From: an uncultured bacterium
GTDB taxonomy: Bacteria; Bacillota_I; Bacilli_A; RFN20; CAG-826
Direction of reading: 5' to 3'
Length of the DNA: 64,000 nucleotides
NCBI GenBank assembly: GCA_949299335.1
Contig: CASGAD010000014.1
Coordinates: forward strand, 66,330 to 130,329
A model generated the notes under the pieces. That model saw only the letters and a list, made by a program, of their open reading frames with translations. It did not search any database and was not told the DNA's origin. Positions 2,614 through 58,385 of the stretch are shown here, in pieces. The first letter of the stretch is position 1. Each line of letters starts with the position of its first letter. The translations under genes were made by a program, and so were the position numbers.

Positions 2614-3902
2614 CATTATTACTCGAATTTCTTGGATGCAAAGTTAATAGTTATGAAGTAGAAGCAATCGCTCAAGAATTTTTTGATCATGGTTTTAAAT
2701 TATTTGATTCTGATAATGAAGATTCTCCAGATGTCATAATTATTAATACCTGTGCAGTTACTGAAACTAGTGTCACTAAAGATAAAAAAATGATTCGTCA
2801 CTATAAAAAACTCTATCCTAATGCCATAATTTGTGTCATGGGTTGCTATTCTCAATATAAAGGAGAATATATTAGTGAAGAATTAGGTGCTCAAATTGTA
2901 ATTGGAACTTCAAATCGAAATAAATTATTTAGTTTATATGAAAAATATATAGCTACAAAGAAAAATATATACCTTCATGATGAAAATAACTCAATTAAAA
3001 ATTATGAAGTTTTACATGTAAATAAGTTTTTATTTAATACAAGAGCTTATGTCAAAATTCAAGATGGGTGTAATAATTTTTGTACTTATTGTTTGATTCC
3101 TTATATTAGAGGACGCTCAAGAAGTAGAGATAAAGATGACATTGTTAATGAAATAAAAACATTAATTTATAATGGACATCGAGAAATCGTTCTTACTGGA
3201 GTAGATATGTCTAGCTATGGACTAGACTTTAAAGAAAAAATATCTTTTAGTGATTTACTTGAATATATCATTTTAAATGTGCCTAATTTATATAGATTAC
3301 GTATATCTTCATTAGAAATTAGTTTATTAGACGATAAATTTCTACATTTATTAGAAAAGTATGATGTTTTAGCTAATCATTTACATATCCCATTACAAAG
3401 TGGCAGTAAAGAAGTTGTTAAAAAAATGAATCGTAAGTATGAAATAGATTTATTTAAAGAAAAAATCGGTTTGATTAGAAAAATTAGACCTGGAATCTCA
3501 ATTACTACTGATGTAATCGTTGGTTTTCCTGGAGAAAGTGAAGTTAACTTTATTGAAACATATCGTTCTTGTGAAGAGATTAAGTTTTCTAAAATTCATG
3601 TTTTCCCTTATTCGGATAGAGAAGGGACAATTGCTTCTAAAATGAACGATAAAATTCCTAATAATGTTAAAAAAGATCGTGTCCATCGACTCATGGCACT
3701 AAGTAAAAATCTTGAGGAAGAATACTCTAAAGAATTCTATGGTCAAGAAATCGAATTTTTATTTGAAGAGTATGACGATTTATTAAAAGGCTATAAAGGG
3801 CATAGTTCGAATTATTTAGAGTGCTATGTTCAAAGTGAAGAAAATTTAAAAGGGGCAATAAAAAAAGTTAAATTTACTAAGGAAAATTCACTTGAATTTT
3901 GA
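2610..3902 (+). CDS. mtaB: tRNA (N6-threonylcarbamoyladenosine) methylthiotransferase MtaB (radical SAM)
   Basis: UPF0004 N-terminal domain (INTCAVT), radical-SAM motif CNNFCTYCLIP, C-terminal TRAM-like region. Synteny after rsmE. Confidence 0.85.
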   Translation: MTLLLEFLGCKVNSYEVEAIAQEFFDHGFKLFDSDNEDSPDVIIINTCAVTETSVTKDKKMIRHYKKLYPNAIICVMGCYSQYKGEYISEELGAQIVIGTSNRNKLFSLYEKYIATKKNIYLHDENNSIKNYEVLHVNKFLFNTRAYVKIQDGCNNFCTYCLIPYIRGRSRSRDKDDIVNEIKTLIYNGHREIVLTGVDMSSYGLDFKEKISFSDLLEYIILNVPNLYRLRISSLEISLLDDKFLHLLEKYDVLANHLHIPLQSGSKEVVKKMNRKYEIDLFKEKIGLIRKIRPGISITTDVIVGFPGESEVNFIETYRSCEEIKFSKIHVFPYSDREGTIASKMNDKIPNNVKKDRVHRLMALSKNLEEEYSKEFYGQEIEFLFEEYDDLLKGYKGHSSNYLECYVQSEENLKGAIKKVKFTKENSLEF

Positions 3903-4295: not shown

Positions 4296-5273
4296 ATGAA
4301 TTTAGGTTTTTTAGGTTGTTCTAAAATCGGAATAAAAATTATTGAGGCACTAAAATCAATTCCTGAAGTGGTTTTATATGGTTGTAGTGCGCAAGATTCT
4401 ATTAGAGCAAAAGAATATAAAGAAAAATATGGTTTTCTTAAAAGCTACGAATCATATGAAGAAATGTTAAACGATCCTAATATTGAATTAGTTTATGTTT
4501 CTACATTAATGAGTACTCACTATAAAGATGTTTTGATGTGTCTAAAGCATAATAAAAGTGTAATAGTAGAAAAAGCTTTTACAATGAATGCCAAAGAAGC
4601 AGATGAGCTATGTTATTATAGTGAAAAACATAATATTTATCTTGGTGAAGCTATTTGGACTAGATATATGCCTAGTAAAGCTATTATTAATAAACTTATT
4701 AAAGATGGCGTTATAGGGGAAGTTTATCATGTTGACGCTAATTTATCATATTCTTTAAAAAATGTTAAAAGATTGACCACTAAAGAGCTTGGTGGAGGTA
4801 TTTTACTTGATGTAGGAGTTTACCCTATTAACTTTTTAACAATGTTTTTTGGCTATGATTTTAAACTTATTAATAGCGTTATGGTCATGAACAAGGAATT
4901 TAATGTTGATGAAAGTGTAATGATAAATGTAGTCTATAAAAACGGATTGACGGCCTCTTTATTTGCTTCAATGAACGGAGTTACTTCTAAAAAAGGAATT
5001 ATTTATGGAAGTAAAGGTTATTTAGAAATTGATGATATAAATAATCCTCATAAGGTTTCTATTTTCGATACATTCAATAAAAGATCACCTGAACTTAGTA
5101 AAGTAATTGAATTTGAAAAGCAGGTGAATGGTTATGAATATGAATTTATAGAAACAATTGAAAATGTTAAAAATCATCAAATTGAGCCAAATTCAATGCT
5201 TCATAGTGAAACATTAAAAATTATGAAAATCATTGATGAAATCAATGAAAAATCGATAAAAGTATATAAGTAG
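4296..5273 (+). CDS. Gfo/Idh/MocA-family NAD(P)-dependent oxidoreductase
   Basis: N-terminal Rossmann pattern LGFLGCSKIG, EKA(F) motif VIVEKAF, typical length of about 325 aa. Confidence 0.8.
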   Translation: MNLGFLGCSKIGIKIIEALKSIPEVVLYGCSAQDSIRAKEYKEKYGFLKSYESYEEMLNDPNIELVYVSTLMSTHYKDVLMCLKHNKSVIVEKAFTMNAKEADELCYYSEKHNIYLGEAIWTRYMPSKAIINKLIKDGVIGEVYHVDANLSYSLKNVKRLTTKELGGGILLDVGVYPINFLTMFFGYDFKLINSVMVMNKEFNVDESVMINVVYKNGLTASLFASMNGVTSKKGIIYGSKGYLEIDDINNPHKVSIFDTFNKRSPELSKVIEFEKQVNGYEYEFIETIENVKNHQIEPNSMLHSETLKIMKIIDEINEKSIKVYK

Positions 5274-5308
5274 TTATTTTATAGTAATTAATTAGTATTA
5301 AATTAGTA
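5260..5308 (+). repeat. Phased TAGTA array 1 (period 11 bp), fills the gap between the oxidoreductase gene and deoC
   Basis: Perfect TAGTA at 5282, 5293 and 5304. Degenerate AAGTA at 5260 and TAGTT at 5271; the latter contains the TAG stop. Confidence 0.7.
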
Positions 5309-8409: not shown

Positions 8410-9282
8410 ATGAAGAGTGGATTTGTCTGTTTAGTTGGTCGTTCCAATGTCGGAAAATCAACTATTTTGAATCGTATTATCGGAAAAAAGGTTTCAATCG
8501 TTTCTCCTAAATCTCAAACCACAAGAAATTCTATTCAAGGAATTTATAATGATGAAGATTCTCAAATAATTTTCGTTGATACTCCAGGAATTCATAAACC
8601 TAAGAATGCTTTAGGCGAAACAATGGATAAAATTTCATATTCTTCAATTAGAGATTGCGATTTAGCTATTTTTGTTGTGGATGCTAGTAAGCCTTTTAAT
8701 GAAGGTGACCAATATCTTTTTGATCATTTAAAATTTGATTGCAATGTAATAATTGTTTTAAACAAAATTGATGAAACTAATGTTGAATTAGTAAATGACT
8801 TAAAAAATAGATATGTTGAGCAATATCATCCAGTAGAAGTTGTACAGACTTGTGCTTTTGATGGTTTTGGTATTAAAGATTTAATAGGAGCAATTAAAAA
8901 GAACCTTGATGAAGGTCCTCAATATTATGATGTATCTACAACAACCAATAGAGATTTAGCCTTTAGAATTCAAGAAATTATAAGAGAAAAAATGCTAACT
9001 TTATTAAGAGAAGAAGTTCCTCATTCATCAACAGTTGTATGCGAAAAAATTGATGATGAAGAGTATCCATTAACAATATACGCTAAAATAATCGTTGAAA
9101 AAGATAGTCAAAAAGGAATAGTAATTGGTTCTAGAGGAATAATGATTCGTAAGATTGGAACATATGCTAGACAAGATATTGAAGCTATGCTAGGAAAACA
9201 TATAAATTTACAATTAAACGTACAAGTAGTAGAAAACTGGAGAAATTCTAGTAGATTTTTAGTAAGAAATGGCTTTAATTAA
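8410..9282 (+). CDS. era: GTPase Era
   Basis: G1 motif GRSNVGKST, DTPG, NKID, C-terminal KH domain. Start chosen at ATG 8410 (MKSGFV), 1 nt after the cdd stop, rather than 8365. Confidence 0.92.
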   Translation: MKSGFVCLVGRSNVGKSTILNRIIGKKVSIVSPKSQTTRNSIQGIYNDEDSQIIFVDTPGIHKPKNALGETMDKISYSSIRDCDLAIFVVDASKPFNEGDQYLFDHLKFDCNVIIVLNKIDETNVELVNDLKNRYVEQYHPVEVVQTCAFDGFGIKDLIGAIKKNLDEGPQYYDVSTTTNRDLAFRIQEIIREKMLTLLREEVPHSSTVVCEKIDDEEYPLTIYAKIIVEKDSQKGIVIGSRGIMIRKIGTYARQDIEAMLGKHINLQLNVQVVENWRNSSRFLVRNGFN

Positions 9283-14663: not shown

Positions 14664-15350
14664 ATGATTTCTAATAGACTAAAAGCAATTGTTTCATTAA
14701 TAAAAAATGACAATAACATAGCTGATATTGGTAGCGACCATGGTTATGTGCTTTTAGAATTACGTAAAAAAGGCTTTAAGTCGAAATTATTGGGTGTTGA
14801 AAATAAAGAACACCCTTTTTTGCGTTTAAAGAAAAATATTATGGCTAGTGGAATTAAGGATATCGCTTGTAGTTTATCTAATGGATTAGATGCTTTACCT
14901 AATAATTATAAAACCATTGTTATTGCTGGAATGGGATTTGATGTAATAAAAAATATTATTTCTCAAAATATAGATAAATTAGATCATATTACCAATATTG
15001 TTATTGATTCACATACAGATAAAGATAAAGTAAGGCCATATTTTTTATCTTTAGGCTATGATGTAGAAGATGAAACTATAATTTTTGAAGATAATATTTA
15101 TTATGATTTAATTGCATTTATTAAAGTTAATAGTATTCAAAAATACTCTAAGGAAGAATTAGAATTTGGAAAAATTAATTTAAAAGCTAAATCTAGTACT
15201 TTTATTAATATGTTAAATGCTGAAATCGTTAAAAATAATGATATTATTAATAAAATTAACAACAGTAATAGTAAACGAATTAATGAACTTGAAAAGCGTA
15301 ATAATTATTTAAGAGGTATATTAAATGAAAACAAGAGCTCTATTAACTAA
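14664..15350 (+). CDS. trmK: tRNA (adenine22-N1)-methyltransferase TrmK
   Basis: ADIGSDHGY SAM-binding motif. Synteny after sigA (yqfN position). Confidence 0.8.
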   Translation: MISNRLKAIVSLIKNDNNIADIGSDHGYVLLELRKKGFKSKLLGVENKEHPFLRLKKNIMASGIKDIACSLSNGLDALPNNYKTIVIAGMGFDVIKNIISQNIDKLDHITNIVIDSHTDKDKVRPYFLSLGYDVEDETIIFEDNIYYDLIAFIKVNSIQKYSKEELEFGKINLKAKSSTFINMLNAEIVKNNDIINKINNSNSKRINELEKRNNYLRGILNENKSSIN

Positions 15351-16107
15351 ATTATCTAAATTATTTCCTAAAAAAATAGCTGAGGCTTATGATTTTCCTG
15401 GTTTACAGGTTTCAAAATTAAAAGAAGAAACCAATATAATTTTGCTTTGTTTGGACTTTGATGAAGATGTGTTAAATTATATATTAAAAAATAATTTAGA
15501 AAATAAACTCGACTTAATTATCACCCATCATCCATTTATTTTTGGTAAAAAGAAAGAAATTTTAGCTAATGATAATATAAAAAACTATCTTTACCATAAA
15601 ATGGAAGAATTAAATATTCCAATTTATAGTTTTCATACTAACTTTGATAGTGGTGTAAATGGAATGAATGATGCTCTTATTAATAAACTTGAATTATCAA
15701 ATCCTCATAGATTGATTAGTGAGCCTATGGCTTGTGGAGGGGATTTGCCTTATGAAATGACAGTAGAAGAGTTTGCTAAATATGTTTTAGATAAATTAGA
15801 TGTCGATTATGGATTACTCTTAAATTATGGTAGTAAAGTAATAAAAAACGCAGCCATTATTGGTGGAGGTGGATGGAGGAGCTTTAAAGCTGCTCAATTA
15901 GAAAGTTATGATATTTTTATTAGTGGAGATATTCCTCATCATGGTAGAAGAGATGTAGTTGCTAATAAATATAATTATTTAGACCTGCCTCATGAAGTAG
16001 AAAATATTTTTATGGAACAAATGAAAAAAATACTACTATCTTTCGATAGCAGTATCGATGTTATTTCCTTATATCAGGAACAGTTTCCCAAAGTGATTTG
16101 TAAGTGA
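15325..16107 (+). CDS. Nif3-family dinuclear metal-centre protein (YqfO-like)
   Basis: IITHHP motif, HTNFD, C-terminal HH. Synteny after trmK. Confidence 0.8.
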   Translation: MKTRALLTKLSKLFPKKIAEAYDFPGLQVSKLKEETNIILLCLDFDEDVLNYILKNNLENKLDLIITHHPFIFGKKKEILANDNIKNYLYHKMEELNIPIYSFHTNFDSGVNGMNDALINKLELSNPHRLISEPMACGGDLPYEMTVEEFAKYVLDKLDVDYGLLLNYGSKVIKNAAIIGGGGWRSFKAAQLESYDIFISGDIPHHGRRDVVANKYNYLDLPHEVENIFMEQMKKILLSFDSSIDVISLYQEQFPKVICK

Positions 16108-16978
16108 AGTAGTTATAAATATCATTTACAACATTTTGATGAACACTCCCATCAGAAACTAATAATATACGTTTCTCAGATGGGATTTTAATTTGCATAG
16201 CGTCTTTTACATCTTTAACAACGGCATAAAGTATATTTTTAGTAGTTAAGTGGTAGTATTCTAGTAGATATTTGTCATATGATGTAGTATCTGTAATGAA
16301 TATAATGACATCATTATCCTTTAAGTTTTCTTCTAAATTCTTTTTTCTATCGAAGTTTTCATCACTTATTTCATCCTCAATAACAGCATTAGGAAGTAAC
16401 TTACGAAGATAATCTAGGGAGCTATCAAAACTAGAACCAGCAAGTTCAGTTTGATATAAAATATGTGTTTTTGATTTATTGAATTTCTTTTCAGTAATAA
16501 CTGATTTAGCCTTTGCAGCATCATTTACATCATAAAATATAAAACTGAATTTTGATTCATTAGTAAGATAGTTTGCTTCTATTGTATTTGTATTACCAAC
16601 AAAAATAATATTGTATTTTCCTTTAGAATTATTGATAAAATCTAATTTTTTCTTAACATTAGGCGATAGCGTTTCAAAAAATCTAAAATGTTCTTTCTTT
16701 AAAACATTGATAGTTTCATGATCACAGCCATAAGGAGAAGTTAAAACGATTGTATCGTTATTTAAATTCTTTAAAAAATCACTAAAGCCCATTGAAGGAA
16801 TATCGACTACATCAATTCCTAATTGCTTTAATTCTTTTTTAATTGCGTTGGCATTTAATAATCCGCCTAAAAGAATGATTTTCTCATTTGGAAAGTCAAA
16901 ACGTGTTTTTCTAGCTATATTTAGTAAGTTTTCCATTGCTGGAGAATAACCAGCTGGAAGTATTAATGTTGTATCCAT
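16061..16978 (-). CDS. IspH/LytB-like protein that lacks the three [4Fe-4S] cysteine ligands (degenerate paralogue or pseudoenzyme)
   Basis: Collinear with remembered IspH motifs along its whole length: PAGYSPAMENL vs PRGFCAGVDRA, ETLSPNVKK vs DATCPLVTK, EISDENFDRK vs DICYATTNRQ, QTE vs QTT, SDGS vs AGAS. It occupies the position and opposite orientation of B. subtilis ispH (yqfP) next to yqfO. Confidence 0.55.
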   Translation of the reverse strand: MDTTLILPAGYSPAMENLLNIARKTRFDFPNEKIILLGGLLNANAIKKELKQLGIDVVDIPSMGFSDFLKNLNNDTIVLTSPYGCDHETINVLKKEHFRFFETLSPNVKKKLDFINNSKGKYNIIFVGNTNTIEANYLTNESKFSFIFYDVNDAAKAKSVITEKKFNKSKTHILYQTELAGSSFDSSLDYLRKLLPNAVIEDEISDENFDRKKNLEENLKDNDVIIFITDTTSYDKYLLEYYHLTTKNILYAVVKDVKDAMQIKIPSEKRILLVSDGSVHQNVVNDIYNYFTYKSLWETVPDIRK

Positions 16979-22242: not shown

Positions 22243-22271
22243 AAAAAACACGATAACAATCGTGCTTTTTT
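22243..22271. terminator. Bidirectional hairpin terminator in a convergent gap
   Basis: Stem CACGAT (22249-22254) pairs with ATCGTG (22259-22264), flanked by an A run on the left and a T run on the right. Confidence 0.5.
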
Positions 22272-22305
22272 AATAAATTCATATATGTTGAAAAGTTTTC
22301 CACAT

Positions 22306-22343
22306 TACTAATAAACTACTAAATTTCTACTAGTTTTCTACTT
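22306..22343 (-). repeat. Phased TAGTA array 2 (period 11 bp), starting at the plsY stop
   Basis: Plus-strand TACTA at 22306, 22317 and 22328. TACTT at 22339 overlaps the TAG stop of plsY. Confidence 0.7.
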
Positions 22344-25265: not shown

Positions 25266-27946
25266 TGGCTGCAAGAAATAAACCAGTTGAAGAAGAAATT
25301 GTAGAAAATATTAGCGTTGAATCCCTTGATGGAGTCATGGGTGATAGATATGCTATCTACGCAAAATATGTTATTCAAGATAGAGCCATCCCAGATGTTA
25401 GAGATGGTTTAAAGCCAGTTCAACGTAGAATAATTTTTAGTATGTATCAAAATGGTAATACATACGATAAGCCAACAAAAAAATGTGCAAAGATTGTTGG
25501 TGATGTTATGGGTAGATTCCATCCTCATGGAGATACTTCAATTTATGATGCTTTAGTTAGACTATCTCAAAGCTGGAAAATGAGTATGCCATTAGTAACT
25601 TTCCAAGGTAATAATGGTTCAATTGATAATGACCCAGCTGCTGCATACCGTTATACTGAAGCAAAATTAAATGAATTTAGTGAAACTCTTATTAATGACA
25701 TCGAAAAGAATACGGTCGATATGACTTTAAATTTTGATGATACAGAATTTGAGCCTGTTGTTTTGCCTTGTAGATACCCTAATTTATTTGTAAATGGCAG
25801 TGAAGGTATTGCTGTTGCTATCGCTACAGAAATTCCACCTCATAATTTAACTGAAATTTGCGAAGCTGCTATTCATTACATTCAACATCCAAAGTGTTCT
25901 TTAGATGATCTTTTAGAGATTGTTAAAGGGCCTGATTTTCCTACTGGTGGCGTAATTTATGAATGTCAAGGCATAAGGGACATTTATGAAACCGGTAGAG
26001 GAAAAATCGAAATTGCTAGTAAAGTTACAATCGATGACTCTAATAAGAACTATAACGAATTAGTTATTAGTGAAATTCCTTATGGAGTAGTTAAGCAAAA
26101 CCTTGCTTATCAAATCGATAAGATTAAAAAGAGCCATGAAATTGATGGAATTAATGAAGTTAGAGATCTTTCAAGTGGTGATGAAATTAAAATTTGTGTT
26201 GAACTTAAAAAGGAAGTTGATCCTAATATTGTTCTCGCTTATTTGATGAGTAAAACTCAATTAAAAGTATCCTATAGCTCTAATATTGTTGCTATTTGTG
26301 ATAATCATCCTAGAACTTTAGGCCTTTTATCATATTTAGATTATTACACTAAATATCAAATCGATGTTATCACTAGAAAGTTTAATTTTGATTTAAAGAA
26401 AGCTAAAGATAGACTTCATATTGTTGAAGGTTTAATTAAGTCGGTAAGTATTATTAATGAAATCATTGCTATTATTAGAAAAAGTGCTGATAAAGCTGAT
26501 TCAAAGAAAAACTTAATGAATGCCTATGGATTTAGTGAAATTCAAGCTGAAGCCATCGTTACAATGAGATTATATAAACTCTCCAATACAGATGTAAGAA
26601 TCTATGTTGAAGAAAAAGCAGAGTTAGAGAAGACAATTGCTTATTTAGAAGAAACTTTAGCTGATGAAAATAAAATAAGAAAAGTTATCGTTAATGATTT
26701 AAAAGCAATCATTAAGAAATTTGGAATCCCTAGAAGAACAGTCATCGAAACTAAAAAAGATGAAATTCAAATTGATAAGCGTGATTTGATTGTTAAGGAA
26801 GATGTTTACGTGGTTGTTACTAAGGATGGCTATGTAAAAAGAAGTTCTTTAAAGAGTTACAAATCTAGTAATGGGGCTCTTCCTGGAGTTAAGCAAAATG
26901 ATGTAGTTATCATGAATCAAATTGTAAATACTGCTGATTATATCTTAGCTTTTACTAATAAAGGGAATTATATTATCATGCCTGTCCATGAGATATTAGA
27001 AGGTAAGTGGAAAGATGAAGGTAAACACATTAATTATATGTGTAATCTTCCATTACAAGAATCATTAATTAGGTGTATTGTTGTTAAAAACTTTGAAGCA
27101 CCAGCATGTATCGCTATTGTTACAAAGAATTCACAAGTTAAGAAAACCTTATTAAGTGATTTTTACACTACTAGAACATCTAAACCAGTTTGTTGTATGC
27201 GTCTTACAGGTAATGATGAAGTTGCCGATGTTGCAGTGCTCTATGGAAATAGCAATATTTATTTATCTACTGAATCAGGAAGATCAACAACTTACTTTAA
27301 TGAAAATGCTTTCGAACCTACAAAACTTAAAACTTGTGGTGTTAAGGGCATTTCGACCTTGAGTAAGAGCACAATTTCTAGAATGCTAACCTATCGACCA
27401 GGTGAAAAGAGCAAATTAGTCATCGTAACAGATAAAGGATTTGTTAAGATTGCTGATTCTAGTAACTTTGTTTTAACTGATAGATTAGGAAGAACCGGAA
27501 CAATTCTTGAGTCGTTTAAAACTTCACCTCATTTAATGAGATGTTGCTTTAAATTAAAAGGTAAACCAACTGAGCTTACTATTCATTGCTTAATGAAGAG
27601 TGGAGAAATGAAAGATTTCACTATTAAAGATTTCTATTTAACTCCTCAAGATAAACATTGTATAACCAATTTAGAAGGATTTAATAAGGAAAAAGATGTA
27701 ATTGAATACATCTATAACGATGAAGCAGAGGTAATTGAAGCAAATGTTAAAGCTGATGCTCCTATAAAAATGCCTTCTGAAACACCTACCTTAATAAAAA
27801 GTTCACCAAAATCTCAAGAAAATGATATCTTCTACAGTTCAGATAAAAAACAAACTATCAAAATAGTGAAAATTGATGATTCTTCAGAAGAACCAGAAGA
27901 AGAAAATTATGAACAAATCTCCATTTTTGATGAAATGGGTGATTAA
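25265..27946 (+). CDS. parC: DNA topoisomerase IV subunit A, with a roughly 90-aa Ser/Glu-rich C-terminal tail
   Basis: DGLKPVQRR, HPHGD, AAAYRYTE (catalytic Tyr). The ATG overlaps the parE stop. Confidence 0.85.
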   Translation: MAARNKPVEEEIVENISVESLDGVMGDRYAIYAKYVIQDRAIPDVRDGLKPVQRRIIFSMYQNGNTYDKPTKKCAKIVGDVMGRFHPHGDTSIYDALVRLSQSWKMSMPLVTFQGNNGSIDNDPAAAYRYTEAKLNEFSETLINDIEKNTVDMTLNFDDTEFEPVVLPCRYPNLFVNGSEGIAVAIATEIPPHNLTEICEAAIHYIQHPKCSLDDLLEIVKGPDFPTGGVIYECQGIRDIYETGRGKIEIASKVTIDDSNKNYNELVISEIPYGVVKQNLAYQIDKIKKSHEIDGINEVRDLSSGDEIKICVELKKEVDPNIVLAYLMSKTQLKVSYSSNIVAICDNHPRTLGLLSYLDYYTKYQIDVITRKFNFDLKKAKDRLHIVEGLIKSVSIINEIIAIIRKSADKADSKKNLMNAYGFSEIQAEAIVTMRLYKLSNTDVRIYVEEKAELEKTIAYLEETLADENKIRKVIVNDLKAIIKKFGIPRRTVIETKKDEIQIDKRDLIVKEDVYVVVTKDGYVKRSSLKSYKSSNGALPGVKQNDVVIMNQIVNTADYILAFTNKGNYIIMPVHEILEGKWKDEGKHINYMCNLPLQESLIRCIVVKNFEAPACIAIVTKNSQVKKTLLSDFYTTRTSKPVCCMRLTGNDEVADVAVLYGNSNIYLSTESGRSTTYFNENAFEPTKLKTCGVKGISTLSKSTISRMLTYRPGEKSKLVIVTDKGFVKIADSSNFVLTDRLGRTGTILESFKTSPHLMRCCFKLKGKPTELTIHCLMKSGEMKDFTIKDFYLTPQDKHCITNLEGFNKEKDVIEYIYNDEAEVIEANVKADAPIKMPSETPTLIKSSPKSQENDIFYSSDKKQTIKIVKIDDSSEEPEEENYEQISIFDEMGD

Positions 27947-28173
27947 TAAGTAGTAATTATTGTAACTATAAAAATAAATATAGAAGCGATTAAGGCGATT
28001 AAATTGAAGTAAAAAGAGTGCTTAATTTCCAAAGTTTCCATCTTATAAGATTGATAAACTCCAACACATAAAAATGCAATTCCAATAAAAGGAATGAAAA
28101 GTGAAGCACCAGCTCCAATTAATCCCATTAGTTTACTTAAATGTAATTTGCTTTCTAATTTATTATCGTCCAT
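27943..28173 (-). CDS. Hypothetical small membrane protein (76 aa, two TM helices)
   Basis: ORF with two clear hydrophobic helices. Its 3' end overlaps the parC stop by 4 nt. No recognisable family. Confidence 0.45.
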   Translation of the reverse strand: MDDNKLESKLHLSKLMGLIGAGASLFIPFIGIAFLCVGVYQSYKMETLEIKHSFYFNLIALIASIFIFIVTIITTY

Positions 28174-28233: not shown

Positions 28234-28271
28234 TAGTAAATAATTAGTAGTTTATAAGTACTAAATTAGTA
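28234..28271 (+). repeat. Phased TAGTA array 3 (period 11 bp) in the divergent gap upstream of yqeG
   Basis: TAGTA at 28234, 28245 and 28267. AAGTA at 28256. Confidence 0.7.
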
Positions 28272-28359
28272 GTATTCATGGATTTTTGTTTAACTAAAAC
28301 CTATTTAAAAACTTGATCTAATTTTGATTGATTTACTTTAAATAACAATACCAAAAATG

Positions 28360-28365
28360 TAAAAT
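28360..28365 (+). promoter_or_regulatory. -10 box TAAAAT placed for a leaderless yqeG transcript
   Basis: TAAAAT ends at 28365 and the ATG is at 28372 (7 nt). No SD. Confidence 0.35.
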
Positions 28366-28371
28366 ATATGT

Positions 28372-28893
28372 ATGTGGAAAAAATTCGTTCCTTTTGCTTT
28401 AGCTGAAAACATTTATGAGATAGAACCTGACTTTTATAAGAAGTATGGTATAGATACTATAATATGTGATTTAGACAATACTTTAGATGCTTATTATGTT
28501 CTTACTCCATCAAATGAAGCGACTAAATTAATTAAGACGCTAAAAGATAATGGCTTTAGAGTAATAATAATCTCGAATAACACAAATAGTAGAGTCGAAA
28601 AATACGCTAAAGATATAAATTGCGAATATGTTTCACTAGCTAGAAAGCCTTTTAGAGCTAAATCAAGAAAGTTTATTAAGCATAATAATATTGATATTAA
28701 AAAGGCAATTTGTATAGGTGATCAAGTGTTTACTGATGTATTATTTGCTAATCGAATGAAAATGAAATGCATATTATGTAATAATTTAGTAGAGAAAGAT
28801 CAATTCTTTACCAAAATAAATAAATTCTTTGATAAACATTTTAGAAAAAGAGTTTTAAAGAAAAAATTAGCGAAAAACTGGAGGGACATGTAA
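28372..28893 (+). CDS. YqeG-family HAD-IIIA phosphatase
   Basis: DLDNTL, ISNN and GDQVFTDV motifs. First gene of the yqeG-rsfS cluster. Confidence 0.85.
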   Translation: MWKKFVPFALAENIYEIEPDFYKKYGIDTIICDLDNTLDAYYVLTPSNEATKLIKTLKDNGFRVIIISNNTNSRVEKYAKDINCEYVSLARKPFRAKSRKFIKHNNIDIKKAICIGDQVFTDVLFANRMKMKCILCNNLVEKDQFFTKINKFFDKHFRKRVLKKKLAKNWRDM

Positions 28894-31449: not shown

Positions 31450-31529
31450 TTTTGAAAATTATTACGATATAATCAATAATATATTAATAATTAAATAATT
31501 TATATTCTGTTGATAATAAAATTAATAAT

Positions 31530-31567
31530 TACTAATAAACTACTAGTTATTTACTAATTTGATACTA
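31530..31567 (-). repeat. Phased TAGTA array 4 (period 11 bp), four perfect units, starting at the stop of the 183-aa ORF
   Basis: Plus-strand TACTA at 31530, 31541, 31552 and 31563. The 18-mer ATTACTAATAAACTACTA (31528-31545) is identical to 22304-22321. Confidence 0.75.
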
Positions 31568-32116
31568 ACAAGAATATAATTTTGTATAATTATTTTTAAT
31601 TTCATCATATTTAAAGTTTAAATTAATTATATTAGAAATAAAATCTCTATAACAATTTAAGATCTTTAAAACAGTATTTTTATTTAAAAATGCGCACGGT
31701 CTAGCATCTTTAATTTTGCCATTTTCTAACTTAAATAAGTCTTTGTGAACAATCTGAATGTTTTGAATTTGAGCATAATATTCATTATCTAAAGATAAAG
31801 AATGAATTATACCTAAGTTAATACCATCTTCGCCATCAAAATAGCATTCATACTTAGTTTTAATAGGGCAAATAAGGACACTATTTTCGTATTCTCCACT
31901 ACTTTTAATAACCACCACTTTAATTGATTTTGCTTCTTTTTTATCATAGTAGCAATTATAGATTTCACCGATTAAAAAGGCTTTTTTGTCTCTATTAAAC
32001 AAGTAATTAGTTGTATATGATAAGGTGGTATTTGCCCGTTCTAATTGCCTAGTTAAAGCATTATTTTTGTCAGATTTAACAAAATATATGTTTTTTTCTT
32101 TAATTTGACTATCCAT
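31565..32116 (-). CDS. Hypothetical protein, weak PemK/MazF-like pattern
   Basis: Good SD AAGGAGAG. GEIY...KVVVI...VLICPIKTK...AQIQNIQIVHKDLF resembles the toxin pattern GD[IV]Y..RP.VV..v.v.PiT..dQirtvdk.Rl. The similarity is weak. Confidence 0.5.
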   Translation of the reverse strand: MDSQIKEKNIYFVKSDKNNALTRQLERANTTLSYTTNYLFNRDKKAFLIGEIYNCYYDKKEAKSIKVVVIKSSGEYENSVLICPIKTKYECYFDGEDGINLGIIHSLSLDNEYYAQIQNIQIVHKDLFKLENGKIKDARPCAFLNKNTVLKILNCYRDFISNIINLNFKYDEIKNNYTKLYSC

Positions 32117-37291: not shown

Positions 37292-37329
37292 TACTAAATA
37301 ACTACTAGTTATATACTAATTATTTACTT
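37292..37329 (-). repeat. Phased TAGTA array 5 (period 11 bp), fills the xseB-dinB gap
   Basis: Plus-strand TACTA at 37292, 37303 and 37314. TACTT at 37325 overlaps the xseB TAA stop. Confidence 0.7.
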
Positions 37330-44693: not shown

Positions 44694-46964
44694 TTAATGA
44701 ATAACACGTCTTACTTCGTAAATGTCTTTCATACCCTTTAAAATGTCAAAAATGTGTTGAAGAACGTTGGCATCACTAACATAAATTTGGCAATAAACAC
44801 TTGTAGTCATGTTTTCTTGATGCATCTTAGCGTTAATTTCAGTACATTTGACTTTGTTAGCGTTAAAAGCGTTTAAAATATCAGCTAATAAGTTATTTCT
44901 ATCTCTTGATTCAATAACAATATCAACTGGATATGATTTTATTCCTAAGTTTGTTTTCCGATGAACATCGATTAATCTACCCTTAACATTTGCAACATTT
45001 GGGCAATTTATTCTATGAACAGTAACTCCATTACCTTTAGTGACATAACCAATAATATTATCTCCTGGAATTGGCGTACAGCAATTTCCAAGAGTGATTT
45101 TAAAGCCAGTTTGATTATCAATAGTTACTGGACAATTGTCATCTTCAAAATTTTCTTTTCTACTAATCTTTAATTCTGAAGTTTCAACTCTTTTAATTTT
45201 TAAGAAATCACAAATTTGAGCTGGAGTTGGATTATGCGCAGCAACAGCCATAAATAAATCATCAACAGTAGATAATTGGTAGTTCTTTAGTACTTTATCA
45301 GTAGATATTAAGGATATCATTTCGTTTTCATCGTACCCTCTATCCTTGAAGAAATCACTTAAAATAGTTTTACCTCTAGCAATTTTTTCATCTTTTACTA
45401 GTCCACTATTTTTCTTTTGTAAGAATTTTTTAATATGCCCTTTTGCACTATTAGTTTTTACAATATTTAACCAGTTTTCATTAGGACCAGGTGCGGTTTT
45501 AGAAGTTTTAATCTCTACAATATCACCAGTTTTTAAAATTGTATTTAAAGGTACTAATGTATTATTAACTATTGCACCAACTGCTGTGTCACCTACTTTA
45601 GTATGAATTTTATAAGCGAAATCTAAAGGTGTTGAACCATTTGGTAAATCTATTACTTTTCCTTTTGGAGTGAAAACATAAACATTTGCCTCAAAGATAT
45701 CTTTACTTAGTGATTCCATATATTCACTAGCCGTTTTATCTCGGGAACTATTATTTATGCTTAAGAAATCTCTAAACCAATGCAACTTTTCTTCGATTTC
45801 ATGTTGTTCTTGCTTAGGACTATAATGTGCCCCTTCTTTATATCTCCAGTGTGCTGCAACACCAGTTTCAGCAATTTCATCCATTTCTTTAGTTCTTATT
45901 TGAACTTCGAAGATATTACCATCCCCAGCGATAATTGACGTATGTAAAGATTGATACATATTTGGTTTAGGCATTGCTATATAATCTTTAAATCTTCCTG
46001 GAATTGGTTTAAAGTGAGCGTGAATTAAACCTAATATTTCATAACAATTTAATTCAGTCTCAGTAATAATTCTTAAAGCCAAAAAATCATAGATTTCATC
46101 AAAAGCATGGCCTTTAATGAACATCTTTTTATAGATTGAATATACAGACTTAATTCTAGATTCAATTTCAAATTTAATATTTTGCTCAATTAAAATATCA
46201 GCAATTTTCTTTTTTAAACTATTTAACGCTTTAGTTCTATTAGCAATTTTTTCATTTAATTGAGAAACTATATGATGAAATTCAACAGGACGTTCGATTT
46301 CAAGAGATAAATCCTCTAATTCACTCTCTAACTTATAAATACCTAATCTATGAGCAATTGGAGCAAAAACTTCTAATGTTTCTTTAGCTAAAGCATGTTG
46401 TCTATCAGGTTTTAAAGCTTTAACTGTTCTCATATTATGAAGTCTATCGGCTAATTTAATGATAATGACACGGACATCTTTAGCCATTCCTAGAAAGATT
46501 TTACGATGATCTTCAGCTGCAAATTCTTCTTCAGTACGTTTTGAAAGCTTCAATCGTTGAATTTTAGTTAACGCATCAACGATTCTAGCACAATCTTCGC
46601 CAAACATTGCCTTAATATCATCAATTGATGTATCAGTATCTTCAACAACATCATGCAATAAAGCAGCGCAAAGAGTAATAGGTCCGCTTTGAAGTGAAGC
46701 ACAAATATAAGCAACTTCAATTAAGTGTTGCAAGTATGGCTCTCCACTTTTTCTAAAGATTCCATCGTGCTTTTTTCTAACAAATTCATAAGCTTTAATA
46801 ATTAAATCACGGTCTTTTTCATCGTGAATATAAGAAAAATATATTTCTTGGACATCTTCAATTGTATGCATTACATAACCACCATTTTGTAAAATAGGTG
46901 ATTCGTCTTTAGCATCAAGTGTTAGGGCTTCAGTTTGTACACCATCTCTTTTAATCTCTTCCAT
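44694..46964 (-). CDS. relA: Bifunctional (p)ppGpp synthetase/hydrolase RelA/SpoT (Rel)
   Basis: HD motif HDVVEDT, synthetase domain, TGS and ACT regions. Start at ATG 46964 with SD GAGGA. Confidence 0.92.
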   Translation of the reverse strand: MEEIKRDGVQTEALTLDAKDESPILQNGGYVMHTIEDVQEIYFSYIHDEKDRDLIIKAYEFVRKKHDGIFRKSGEPYLQHLIEVAYICASLQSGPITLCAALLHDVVEDTDTSIDDIKAMFGEDCARIVDALTKIQRLKLSKRTEEEFAAEDHRKIFLGMAKDVRVIIIKLADRLHNMRTVKALKPDRQHALAKETLEVFAPIAHRLGIYKLESELEDLSLEIERPVEFHHIVSQLNEKIANRTKALNSLKKKIADILIEQNIKFEIESRIKSVYSIYKKMFIKGHAFDEIYDFLALRIITETELNCYEILGLIHAHFKPIPGRFKDYIAMPKPNMYQSLHTSIIAGDGNIFEVQIRTKEMDEIAETGVAAHWRYKEGAHYSPKQEQHEIEEKLHWFRDFLSINNSSRDKTASEYMESLSKDIFEANVYVFTPKGKVIDLPNGSTPLDFAYKIHTKVGDTAVGAIVNNTLVPLNTILKTGDIVEIKTSKTAPGPNENWLNIVKTNSAKGHIKKFLQKKNSGLVKDEKIARGKTILSDFFKDRGYDENEMISLISTDKVLKNYQLSTVDDLFMAVAAHNPTPAQICDFLKIKRVETSELKISRKENFEDDNCPVTIDNQTGFKITLGNCCTPIPGDNIIGYVTKGNGVTVHRINCPNVANVKGRLIDVHRKTNLGIKSYPVDIVIESRDRNNLLADILNAFNANKVKCTEINAKMHQENMTTSVYCQIYVSDANVLQHIFDILKGMKDIYEVRRVIH

Positions 46965-55796: not shown

Positions 55797-58385
55797 CTAA
55801 ATGTTTTTTAATTTTTCTAAAATTTGGTTAAGTTTACTCTTATAGTTTTCGTATTTTTCTTTTTCAAGATCAATTTTAACTTTTGGAGCTTTTTCAACGA
55901 AGTTTGGATTATTCAATAAACCCTCACTTCTTTTAATTTCAAATTGAACTTGAGCCAAATCCTTCTCTAATCTAGCTTTCATCTCATTTTTATTAATTAA
56001 GTCTTTAACAAACAATGTTAAGTTATCAAGAATAATACTGGTAACACCTTTAATGTTTTCTTTAGTAGTAACTAAAGATTTAGCAAAGCTAAATCTAGCA
56101 ATATAAGGATAAATATCTTCTACATCTAAATTTGTTTTAATATAAAGTTCTAATGGTGCGTTTGGAGCTAATTCATTTTTAACCTTATATTCTCTTAATT
56201 TTTCAATTGCAGCTTTTAATATATCTCCCTTTTTAAGTGAATCTTCAAAGATATATTCATTTTCAAAATCAGGATAAGATTCAAGCATGATAGACTCTTT
56301 ATGATCTGGTAAAGCTAAATAAATCTCTTCTGCAATAAATGGCGAGAATGGATAAATCATCATAATTATTGCTTTTAAAGCTTTAATTAATACAAAATAA
56401 GTTCCTTCTTTATATGCTTTTTCATCTTTTAAAGTAACTTTTGTCATTTCTAGATAAAATGAACAGAAATCATCATAAACAAAATTATATAAATTTGTAC
56501 TAGCAACACCATATTCATATGAATCCATGGCTTTAGTTACATTCTTAATAGTATCTTCTAATCTAGTGAGAATGTATTTATCAATTGTTTCAAGTTTATT
56601 TAAATTTATTTCACCTTGAGAATAGTTTTCAGGCAAATTCATAAGAATATATCGGGCACTGTTCCAAATTTTATTTAAATAATTATTAGCGGATTTAACT
56701 TTTTCTTCGCTATAACGCATATCTAAGCCTGGAGATGCAGTTGTTGCTAAGAAATATCTTAAGCTATCGACACCATAATTATTAATTACATCTATTGGAT
56801 CAATACCATTTCCTAATGATTTTGACATTTTTCTTACTTGAGAATCTCTTACAATTCCATGAATTATGACATTCTTAAATGGAACATTCTTTGTAAAATA
56901 TAGTCCTTGGAAAACCATTCTTGCTACCCAGAAGAAGATAATATCGTATCCAGTGACCATACAATCTAAAGGATAATAACGTTTAAAATCATCTGTATTA
57001 TCTGGCCAACCTAATGTTTCAAAAGGCCATAAAGCGCTTGAGAACCAAGTATCTAAAACATCTTCATCTTGGGTCCGATTTTCCATATCAGTAGGTTTTT
57101 GGGCAGAAACTAGTATTTCATTAGTAGTTTTATGGTAATAAACAGGAATCCTATGACCCCACCATAGTTGTCTTGAGACACACCAGTCATCACATTTTTC
57201 CATCCATTGCTCTAAAACTTTTTCAAATCTTTCTGGGAAAAATTTAATTTTATCTTTTGAAGCTTGTTGATCTAAGACAAGTTGAGCAAGAGGTTTCATT
57301 TTTACAAACCATTGTAATGAAAGAATAGGTTCTACTACAGCATCACTTCTTTCGCTGTGTCCAACTTGGTGTTTAATGTTTTCAATCTTAATCAAATTGC
57401 CTTCTTCTTTAATAGTCTTCACTAATAAATCTCTACAAGCAAATCTATCCATACCAGCGTATTTACCACAATTTTCTTTCATAGTGCCATCAACATTCAT
57501 AATAATTGGATGTGGTAAATTGTATTTTTGACCAATAATCCAGTCATTAGGATCATGAGCTGGGGTACATTTCATTGCGCCAGTACCAAATTGAATATCA
57601 ACATATTCATCTGCAATAACAGGAATTTCCTCATGGTTAGCTGGATTTATAACTTTTTTGCCAACTACATCTTTATATCTTTCATCATTCGGATTAACAA
57701 CAATGCAAGTATCACCAAACATTGTTTCAGGTCTAGTTGTAGCAATTGTTAAAAACTTTGAAGGATTATCTACAAAAGGGTATTTAAAGTAGAAAAATTG
57801 GCCTTCATCTTCTTTATATATAACTTCAATATTACTTAAAGCAGTTTTCATGACTGGATCATAGTTAACAATTTTTTGTCCTCTATAAATAAGTCCTTTA
57901 TTATATAAAGTAACAAAAACTTTGTTAACAGCTTTTGAACAACCAGCATCCAAGGTGAATCTTTCACGAGTATAATCGACCATTATGCCCATTTTCGCCC
58001 ATTGTTCATGAATTTTAGAAGTATATTCTTCTTTCCATTCATAAGCACGTTTCATGAATTCTTCTCTACCTATGATAAATCTTGAAGTTCCTTCACTAGC
58101 AAGTTTAGCATCTACTTTTGCTTGAGTAGCAATTCCAGCATGGTCAACACCTGGTAAAAATAATACATCAAAGCCTTTAGCTTTTTTATATCTACAAGTA
58201 ATATCTTGAATAGTGTTATCGATTGAGTGACCTATATGAAGCTTACCTGTAACGTTTGGTGGAGGAATAACCATAGAAAATTTTTGCTTTGATTTGTCTC
58301 CAGCTGTAAAATAACCAGCTTTCTTCCAAATTTCGTATCTTCCAGCTTCCACTTCTTTAAAATCGTATTTTTTGTCAAGTGCCAT
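55797..58385 (-). CDS. valS: Valine--tRNA ligase
   Basis: HIGH (LHIGH) and KMSKS motifs, C-terminal coiled coil. 862 aa. Confidence 0.95.
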   Translation of the reverse strand: MALDKKYDFKEVEAGRYEIWKKAGYFTAGDKSKQKFSMVIPPPNVTGKLHIGHSIDNTIQDITCRYKKAKGFDVLFLPGVDHAGIATQAKVDAKLASEGTSRFIIGREEFMKRAYEWKEEYTSKIHEQWAKMGIMVDYTRERFTLDAGCSKAVNKVFVTLYNKGLIYRGQKIVNYDPVMKTALSNIEVIYKEDEGQFFYFKYPFVDNPSKFLTIATTRPETMFGDTCIVVNPNDERYKDVVGKKVINPANHEEIPVIADEYVDIQFGTGAMKCTPAHDPNDWIIGQKYNLPHPIIMNVDGTMKENCGKYAGMDRFACRDLLVKTIKEEGNLIKIENIKHQVGHSERSDAVVEPILSLQWFVKMKPLAQLVLDQQASKDKIKFFPERFEKVLEQWMEKCDDWCVSRQLWWGHRIPVYYHKTTNEILVSAQKPTDMENRTQDEDVLDTWFSSALWPFETLGWPDNTDDFKRYYPLDCMVTGYDIIFFWVARMVFQGLYFTKNVPFKNVIIHGIVRDSQVRKMSKSLGNGIDPIDVINNYGVDSLRYFLATTASPGLDMRYSEEKVKSANNYLNKIWNSARYILMNLPENYSQGEINLNKLETIDKYILTRLEDTIKNVTKAMDSYEYGVASTNLYNFVYDDFCSFYLEMTKVTLKDEKAYKEGTYFVLIKALKAIIMMIYPFSPFIAEEIYLALPDHKESIMLESYPDFENEYIFEDSLKKGDILKAAIEKLREYKVKNELAPNAPLELYIKTNLDVEDIYPYIARFSFAKSLVTTKENIKGVTSIILDNLTLFVKDLINKNEMKARLEKDLAQVQFEIKRSEGLLNNPNFVEKAPKVKIDLEKEKYENYKSKLNQILEKLKNI

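Follow-up and report, generated by a model that had tools for sequence, protein, structure and literature searches.

Tandem TAGTA arrays with a strict 11-nucleotide period at gene ends of an uncultured low-GC bacterium: conserved elements and a tentative RNA-level reading

The DNA analyzed here, referred to as the window, is the whole 64-kb stretch of contig CASGAD010000014.1 (positions 66,330 to 130,329), which derives from an uncultured bacterium of the Bacilli. It has a G+C content of ∼28% and consists of a run of housekeeping genes converging on a dif-like Xer recombination site. Dispersed along it are short arrays in which the pentamer TAGTA is repeated in tandem with an exact period of 11 nt. 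Five such arrays had been reported in a first-pass annotation, and all five were found at the positions and on the strands given there. A scan of the window with a position weight matrix (PWM) built from the units revealed four additional arrays, all within coding sequence, and the density amounts to ∼1 array per 7 kb. The nine arrays score 21–41, compared with a top score of 11.6 in 20 Markov shuffles. The five arrays reported first and the four found by the scan are as follows.

31530..31567, minus strand: best array, four perfect units TAGTATCAAAT TAGTAAATAAC TAGTAGTTTAT TAGTA (PWM score 41.2; null maximum 11.6)
5260..5308, plus strand: array of five units, AAGTA TAGTT TAGTA TAGTA TAGTA
22306..22343, minus strand: array of four units starting on the TAG stop codon of plsY, in a convergent region
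28234..28271, plus strand: array of four units, downstream of parC
37292..37329, minus strand: array of four units, in the gap between xseB and dinB
16229..16266, plus strand: array of four units, AAGTA TAGTA TGGTA TAGTA, antisense within the coding sequence of ispH (PWM score 32.3)
9227..9264, plus strand: array in sense orientation within the 3' end of era (PWM score 23.7)
45266..45303, plus strand: weaker array, CAGTA TGGTA TAGTA CAGTA, antisense within relA (PWM score 26.9)
57089..57137, plus strand: weaker array, CAGTA .. TAGTA TAGTA TGGTA, antisense within valS (PWM score 20.9)

An open reading frame (ORF) of 183 amino acids (aa) ends on the first TAG of the best array, which occupies a convergent intergenic region 84 nt from the dif-like site. 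This proximity had already been pointed out, as had an 18-mer, ATTACTAATAAACTACTA, that reads the same at 22304–22321 and 31528–31545; both were found as described.

The three-unit pattern TAGTA-N6-TAGTA-N6-TAGTA occurs five times in the window, whereas 0.00 occurrences are expected from dinucleotide shuffles; the corresponding values are 13 and 0.25 for the two-unit pattern, and 18 and 0.54 for matches with up to two mismatches. Distances between TAGTA pentamers on the same strand are 11 nt (13 pairs), 22 nt (9 pairs) and 33 nt (4 pairs), with no pair at 10 or 12 nt. The initial description of a non-random family that is neither coding, CRISPR nor hairpin holds for the five arrays on which it was based; the four added by the scan are embedded in genes. 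A set of 122 units, some of them chosen by the search pattern itself, gives the consensus YTAGTA-D-WWWW, in which a 7-nt core and an A/T spacer of 4 nt make up a strict 11-nt lattice. Within the window's own arrays, only 1 of 64 spacer positions is occupied by G or C. Arrays comprise three to eight units, most frequently four, and the first unit is frequently AAGTA with an A-rich spacer. The spacers differ inside every array, unlike those of plain 11-bp microsatellites, in which whole units are near-identical. Coding sequence shows hardly any avoidance of the lone TAGTA pentamer (80 observed and 103 expected, in 57 genes); function therefore needs the array, which argues for cooperative binding and against cutting at every site.

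Two explanations of the unit were rejected. The gain in folding stability of arrays over spacer-shuffled controls is slight (mean z = −0.8) and the same on both strands, which speaks against a hairpin structure. Promoter mimicry was dismissed as well: the pattern TTAGTA-N17-TAGTAT follows from the 11-bp period, and position 6 is T in only ∼25% of the units and is not enriched for T in last units. An Rfam gathering search gave no match in the window or in 14 loci, and the literature searched on TAGTA/UAGUA repeats yielded no relevant description.

The genomes compared with the window are uncultured Mollicutes/Bacilli, represented by genome fragments whose loci are labelled L followed by a number. 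Intergenic regions of the window and of L274 are ∼80% identical, and their 183-aa proteins share 81% identity. Over the two arrays common to both, the cores are identical at 39 of 40 positions and the spacers at 20 of 36, with no insertion or deletion (Fisher p = 1e-5); in the 31530 array, all four cores and their phase are kept and the spacers differ. Between genomes the spacers stay A/T while they diverge, and the phase survives slippage of single units in L168 and L136. Cores that are kept while spacers diverge without indels point to selection, and not to low complexity or a decaying microsatellite. The pattern indicates that purifying selection acts on core and phase and, together with the recurrence of arrays at orthologous junctions described below, excludes coincidence, neutral microsatellite decay and a mobile repeat. 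A neutral family of dispersed repeats, one of the explanations first put forward, is excluded by the contrast between kept cores and diverging spacers.

Conservation in orthologous intergenic regions, which the first-pass annotation had proposed to examine, turned out to be strong. The junction downstream of xseB carries an array in 8/8 genomes examined, followed by dinB or, in L004, by dxs; in 5/8 the next ATG lies 3–5 nt past the last core and is not preceded by a Shine-Dalgarno sequence. On the 3' side of plsY, orthologous arrays in the window and L239 share the end TAGTAATGTGGA. The 5' side of deoC carries an array in the window and in L163, with a different upstream gene in each (the gene L32 in L163). 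The order parC, small antisense gene, array, yqeG is found in the window, L239 and L229; the small gene, array and yqeG are also present in L158, the contig of which stops before any parC. At the parC-yqeG junction of L268, L270, L277 and L278 there is no array. The last gene before dif is followed by an array in the window, L274, L129, L004, L158, L266/267, L268/269, L272/273 and L278, and the gap between an ftsL-like gene and ftsA carries one in L069, L104 and L230. Gene content near the arrays varies: dxs separates the xseB array from dinB in L004, the window has the MocA oxidoreductase gene interposed between the gene L32 and the deoC array, and the gene preceding the terminus array is, depending on the genome, deoB or the homologue of the 183-aa ORF.

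The placement of the arrays is best seen against the gene map, the labels of which were assigned by Pfam through exact-protein look-ups in gut metagenome assemblies. These labels agree with the identities first given to deoC, yqeG (a yqeG-type HAD phosphatase) and dinB. The long genes have no in-frame TGA and encode Trp by TGG, so the genetic code is the standard one; a code with TGA as Trp was considered and dismissed (0 in-frame TGA in long genes). Gene order and the remaining features are listed below.

Left arm: L32, MocA oxidoreductase, array, deoC ... era with its array, recO, glyS, dnaG, sigA
Left arm, onward: trmK, NIF3, array inside ispH ... efp and UPF0154 (rightward), facing the array and plsY (leftward)
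From plsY to dif: parE, parC, small antisense membrane-protein gene, array, yqeG, yqeH, yhbY, HD, rsfS, directed towards dif
Right arm: dif, then, directed towards it, array, 183-aa ORF, ABC permease, lipoprotein, deoB, xerC, dinB
Right arm, onward: dinB, array, xseB, xseA, nusB and further genes
27943–28173, minus strand: small membrane-protein gene, antisense across the parC stop codon
31422..31446, plus strand: dif-like Xer recombination site ACTTCGTATAATATCTATTATGTAA at the replication terminus, given as context and separate from the array
31565..32116, minus strand: 183-aa ORF with a predicted, divergent MazF/PemK fold; it terminates on the first TAG of the best array

Usually, an array starts on, or at most 10 nt from, the stop codon of the gene to which it is sense. 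As first noted, four of the five initially reported arrays start on the upstream stop codon, which lies inside the first unit (TAG of the 183-aa ORF, plsY and the MocA-type oxidoreductase; TAA of xseB). The 5260 array spans the oxidoreductase stop, and its last unit continues into the GGAGG ribosome-binding site of deoC. The 37292 array occupies the entire 37-nt gap between the xseB stop, which is in unit 1, and the dinB ATG, which follows 5 nt past the last core without a Shine-Dalgarno sequence. The 22306 array is followed by a small hairpin, beyond which lies an intrinsic terminator (stem 22249–22264). The 28234 array is indeed followed by yqeG, as had been reported, ∼66 nt upstream of the −35 element of its promoter; the gene upstream is parC, with the small antisense gene lying in between and over the parC stop.

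The era array ends ∼20 nt upstream of the recO ATG and retains three units, the sole change being that of a would-be in-frame TAG to TGG. The 16229 array encodes LL..YY..TT in ispH; it is sense to the dnaG-sigA operon and lies 122 nt past the stop of that operon's final gene, NIF3. The 3' ends of NIF3 (15325–16107, plus strand) and ispH (16061–16978, minus strand) share 47 bp in a tail-to-tail overlap. At 3' ends covered by an antisense gene, namely those of parC (small gene) and NIF3 (ispH), the array persists and is sense to the upstream operon. The overlap of the small gene with the parC stop is also kept in L239, L229, L270 and L277.

Across the window and the related loci, TAGTA is on the sense strand in 14/16 junction types (binomial p = 0.004), a figure to be read with the small number of junction types in mind. 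Seven types of co-directional gene pair carry the array in sense orientation and one (ftsA) in antisense. Approximately 40% of the junction types are convergent regions that lack promoters, promoters and terminators being predictions throughout. In these regions, the distance from the array to the stop of its sense gene is −6, −3, 3, 3, 5, 7 or 10 nt, and 42 nt in a single case, and in most junction types the convergent array is nearest the stop of the gene to which it is sense. Within the window, both non-overlapping convergent intergenic regions have an array, compared with 0/3 divergent regions. The array precedes a terminator hairpin at 22306 and 31530 in the window and in L239, L268, L272 and L180. 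A polarity set by the replication fork, of the Ter or KOPS kind, was rejected: six arrays are co-oriented with and three opposed to the dif/skew switch, and the orientation of the plsY array follows the gene and not the replichore.

The surroundings of the terminus array offered several side observations. GC skew changes sign near 32 kb, at the dif-like site, the sequence of which is identical in L274 and similar in L004, L268, L272 and L278; a xerC-like gene is located ∼4 kb away, beside dinB. In L272 (1152–1178) and L273 (620–646), two perfect DnaA boxes (TGTGGATAAC) spaced by 19 nt stand directly 3' of the terminus array and are followed by a strong ribosome-binding site and an ORF of eight codons. 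One-mismatch DnaA boxes occur 3' of the plsY array of the window (22296–22304) and of the L004 array, and TGTGGAAAA follows two arrays other than those of L272/273. A link to DnaA was dismissed: the window shows no enrichment of such boxes (15 found, 20 expected), their phase does not match that of the lattice, and L274 does not conserve them.

A second set of observations concerns promoters. yqeG, the small gene opposite to it, and ftsA of related genomes lack a Shine-Dalgarno sequence and have a −10 box (TAAAAT/TATAAT) at 6–10 nt from the ATG (window 28337–28374; L069 about 3380–3400; L158 about 340–358), which suggests that this lineage has leaderless mRNAs. Because the array lies upstream of the conserved yqeG promoter, the yqeG mRNA does not include it. 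For the small gene opposite yqeG, the geometry is like that of ftsA, with the array upstream of an apparent leaderless promoter.

Searches of genome, metagenome and viral collections with the four-unit pattern returned, among the matches listed, mostly plain 11-bp microsatellites and a separate family in Bacteroidales; within that listing, the heterogeneous arrays came only from contigs of the low-GC, uncultured Mollicutes/Bacilli type. Plain TAGTA-containing 11-bp microsatellites (L003–L265) are widespread and were listed for, among others, Flavobacteria, Patescibacteria, archaea and metagenome-assembled genomes (MAGs) of giant viruses, and pattern searches for the arrays described here must filter them out. 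The Bacteroidales MAGs contain TAGTA(G/T)GTGAT arrays of four to eight units, like the arrays of the window in their 11-bp period and ATTAGTA core (L006, L016, L021, L023, L034, L047, L061, L063, L081 and at least ∼25 further loci). Their neighboring genes are varied, TTTAGCAT often stands just upstream, a few lie directly 3' of a Bacteroidetes-type promoter (TTTG...TAnnTTTG), and none matches Rfam; these arrays are perhaps an element of a related kind. The short contigs L266, L275 and L276 stop inside, or a few bases past, the array behind the homologue of the 183-aa ORF, and assemblers appear to break at these repeats. Such breaks in short-read assemblies matter for the binning of these genomes.

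The 183-aa ORF that ends on the best array has no Pfam match even at E = 10, and neither PADLOC nor a sequence search of the PDB gave a hit. Its homologues number 22 representatives among 1.8 billion proteins, and the family is found only in this group of genomes. An AlphaFold2 model based on a 24-sequence alignment reached a pLDDT of 80 (a model from 3 sequences was unusable, with a pLDDT of 41). Compared with the PDB by Foldseek, the top 50 matches of the model are all MazF (E from 3e-4, probability 1.0, target TM-score 0.6–0.76), and on this predicted structure the assignment to the MazF fold is secure. An hhalign comparison with four MazF sequences gave the expected register in a weak alignment (E = 0.077), in which R29 and T52 of E. 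coli MazF align with non-conserved positions. The protein has an additional helix at its N terminus and is extended at its C terminus, where a conserved Cys is the last residue, immediately followed by the stop codon and the array. The gene upstream encodes an ABC permease, not an antitoxin, and beside this gene the family holds a constant syntenic place at the replication terminus. An array adjoins the 3' end of the homologue in L129, L266/267, L268/269, L272/273, L274, L278, L270 and L277, on the same strand except in L270 and L277, where it is flipped; at the terminus junction of L158, the array is present without a homologue. By adjacency, the 183-aa protein is a speculative candidate for the reader of the arrays.

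The arrays, the selection acting on them and their rules of phase, position and orientation are what the sequences show; an RNA ligand, a bound protein and the consequences of binding are inferred from them. The reading that we tentatively favour, as the leading possibility and not as an established function, is that the arrays may be cooperative binding lattices for a multi-subunit protein that reads the transcribed strand, with a logic resembling that of TRAP and HutP. An array would be the first untranslated, ribosome-free RNA past the stop codon. Each YUAGUA core would take up one protomer, with successive protomers 11 nt apart and the A/U spacers between them free of constraint, and three to eight adjacent protomers would stabilize one another. 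Bound protein would hide the start codon or ribosome-binding site of a cistron that begins only a few nucleotides away (dinB, dxs, deoC, recO) and would thereby gate its translation; where no cistron follows, a lattice between stop codon and terminator hairpin could protect or mark the 3' end. Binding could also sense whether the upstream gene is being translated, since the first one or two units would lie under a ribosome halted at its stop codon. Such a lattice would explain most of the placement rules, and an RNA-level UAG-repeat site or 3'-untranslated-region element, already among the initial alternatives, fits the placement better than an operator does. Several observations weigh against the RNA lattice. 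Known RNA-binding rings tolerate some variation of spacer length, whereas the unslipping lattice of 7 + 4 nt has the signature of head-to-tail winged-helix proteins on double-stranded DNA, and in L168 spacings of 10 and 12 nt even offset each other. The ftsL-ftsA arrays are antisense in all three genomes (L069, L104, L230) and stand just upstream of a TATAAT located 10 nt before the ATG, an apparent leaderless promoter. In the L270/L277 subclade, the terminus array is flipped and nearer the stop of the antisense gene. A terminator-like hairpin lies upstream of the array in L136 and L235, a strong extended −10 promoter downstream of it in L057 and L136, and the relA and valS arrays are antisense to their host genes.

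DNA operators are a serious rival, possible without being probable: dimers or tetramers of an OmpR/PhoB-type winged-helix or other head-to-tail protein would line one face of the helix, with a protomer on each YTAGTAD core and its wing in the A/T minor groove, and would repress or activate adjacent promoters. Pho boxes, the direct repeats of ArcA (TGTTA-N6) and SaeR sites (GTTAA-N6) are laid out alike. The unit of 7 + 4 nt, the strict 11-bp period with G/C-free spacers and typically four units, and a phase that is kept despite single-unit slips (L168, L136) all suit such proteins, as do arrays that precede promoters, by ∼45–100 bp for the apparently leaderless ones of ftsA and the small gene facing yqeG, and in L057 and L136, where the promoter is clearly of the extended −10 type. 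The winged-helix operator proposed in the first-pass annotation is upheld in its layout, a 7 + 4 unit on an 11-bp lattice, but not in genomic placement, which is convergent, stop-abutting, ahead of terminator hairpins and orientation-biased. The junction types are to ∼40% convergent and promoter-less, and none of the window's three divergent regions is occupied; the arrays touch stop and start codons and do not keep a fixed distance from a −10 or −35 element, and their orientation tracks the upstream gene. A protein sitting tightly on the stop codon would presumably also stall RNA polymerase before the gene end, and no response regulator turned up in the 64-kb window or the related loci covered. 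An improbable alternative is a DNA boundary element between transcription units, distributed much like REP/BIME, which would be a site for a nucleoid-associated protein or topoisomerase and would handle supercoiling or read-through at operon ends. The arrays do occur at unit boundaries, before the terminator (window 22306, L239, L180) or after it (L136, L235), are enriched between convergent genes and recur about once per 7 kb. However, the orientation bias and the exact contact with stop codons are left unexplained, copies inside operons that touch the next ATG (dinB) do not resemble domain boundaries, and we know of no topoisomerase or nucleoid protein that reads a pentamer on an 11-bp lattice.

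A role for the neighboring MazF-fold protein is also to be weighed, and the probability given to it overlaps with that of the RNA-level reading. We doubt, without dismissing it, that the arrays are targets or RNA partners of this protein, be it by cutting at UAGUA for mRNA processing or by a type III-like neutralization. The fold assignment is secure, gene and array are adjacent in every homologue locus examined, MazF proteins read single-stranded RNA motifs of 3–7 nt, and the protein family and the heterogeneous arrays are both confined to this group among the matches listed. Against this stand the catalytic Arg and Thr positions, which are not conserved in the weak hhalign register (E = 0.077), and the 80 single UAGUA sites tolerated in 57 genes; moreover, an endonuclease has no need of an 11-nt phase. 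The gene is a syntenic core gene and not a mobile toxin-antitoxin module, L158 has the terminus array without it, and the xseB and plsY junctions conserve their arrays equally well. Similarly unlikely is the more specific proposal that the lattice is read by the MazF-fold protein as a former toxin that has lost its nuclease chemistry and polymerizes on post-stop YUAGUA repeats; such a reader would mark the ends of translation units and gate the next cistron, for example the error-prone polymerase gene dinB. Very improbable, and already largely refuted, is that the arrays have no dedicated function and represent decaying 11-bp microsatellites, an all-frame stop trap or AT-rich coincidence. Plain microsatellites containing TAGTA are common in many phyla, and an 11-nt period puts TAG in all three frames; however, shuffles give no such arrays, the cores are conserved while spacers diverge, and the positions are orthologous across species. 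The stop trap, one of the alternatives listed initially, needs neither an invariant TA following TAG nor an invariant Y preceding it nor a rigid period, and it leaves antisense and embedded copies unexplained.

Among known systems, TRAP and HutP of Bacillus are the closest to the arrays in the RNA-level logic that we favour. Their targets likewise consist of a tandem UAG-containing core with non-conserved, A/U-rich spacers and are dispersed over several places per genome, some overlapping the start of a cistron and blocking its translation, others lying beside terminator hairpins. They differ in a period of 5–6 (TRAP) or 7 nt (HutP) compared with 11 nt here, in a spacer of 2–3 (TRAP) or 4 nt (HutP) compared with 6 nt, in a core of 3 nt compared with 5–7 nt, in a copy number matched to an 11-mer or hexamer ring compared with three to eight units, and in their location in 5' leaders and not after stop codons. 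Neither mtrB nor hutP is present in the sequence available. TRAP- and HutP-type leaders can also form alternative terminator and antiterminator structures; the folds predicted for the arrays are weak. The operators of OmpR/PhoB-type regulators (Pho box, ArcA, SaeR, WalR) share the 11-bp centre spacing, a 5–7-bp core, A/T-rich spacers and two to five head-to-tail units with cooperative occupancy. They keep a fixed distance from promoter elements, whereas the arrays occupy 3' ends and convergent regions, touch stop and start codons and take their orientation from the upstream gene. REP/BIME of enterobacteria and MIRU of mycobacteria are likewise small dispersed elements at operon ends or between cistrons, usually oriented with the gene, and MIRU can overlap the flanking stop and start codons as the arrays do. 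However, REP elements are palindromic hairpins and MIRU are units of 40–100 bp with small ORFs; the arrays consist of weakly structured 11-nt direct repeats and conserve only a pentamer and not the whole unit.

Two further systems bear a more limited resemblance. In type III toxin-antitoxin loci (ToxIN, AbiQ/antiQ), a MazF/Kid-like protein of ∼170–185 aa is likewise encoded beside a tandem repeat on the same strand. ToxI-type repeats are ∼35 nt long, lie upstream of the toxin behind a terminator and occupy one locus, whereas the arrays have an 11-nt unit, lie downstream, occur in at least nine places in the window and are dispersed over many housekeeping junctions; in addition, ToxIN is a mobile, patchy locus and the 183-aa gene a syntenic core gene, the top structural matches of which are MazF and not ToxN. 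Plasmid iterons such as R1 parC, the 11-bp repeats bound by ParR, are likewise cooperative 11-bp tandem repeats, but form one locus per replicon with at least 10 units conserved over their whole length; the arrays are many, short and conserved in the core only. By analogy, the nearest relatives would be TRAP/HutP in logic, response-regulator repeats in geometry and REP/BIME in distribution, and the arrays miss at least one defining feature of each of them.

Tandem-core arrays that bind proteins are a known kind of element, and it is the rule of starting on the stop codon that is unusual. Whatever their level of action, the arrays draw attention to a new, clade-specific MazF-fold protein. Were the arrays to act on DNA, they would mark out the regulon of a global regulator in regulator-poor organisms. 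If the doubtful MazF-fold reader were true, the arrays would represent a new class of post-stop-codon regulatory element and the MazF fold would have acquired a new job. If, as we tentatively favour, the arrays act as RNA, many housekeeping operons of the lineage would have in common a regulatory or 3'-end element beginning at the stop codon, and the arrays would provide a handle on operon boundaries and on the restraint of dinB in small-genome, uncultured gut bacteria.

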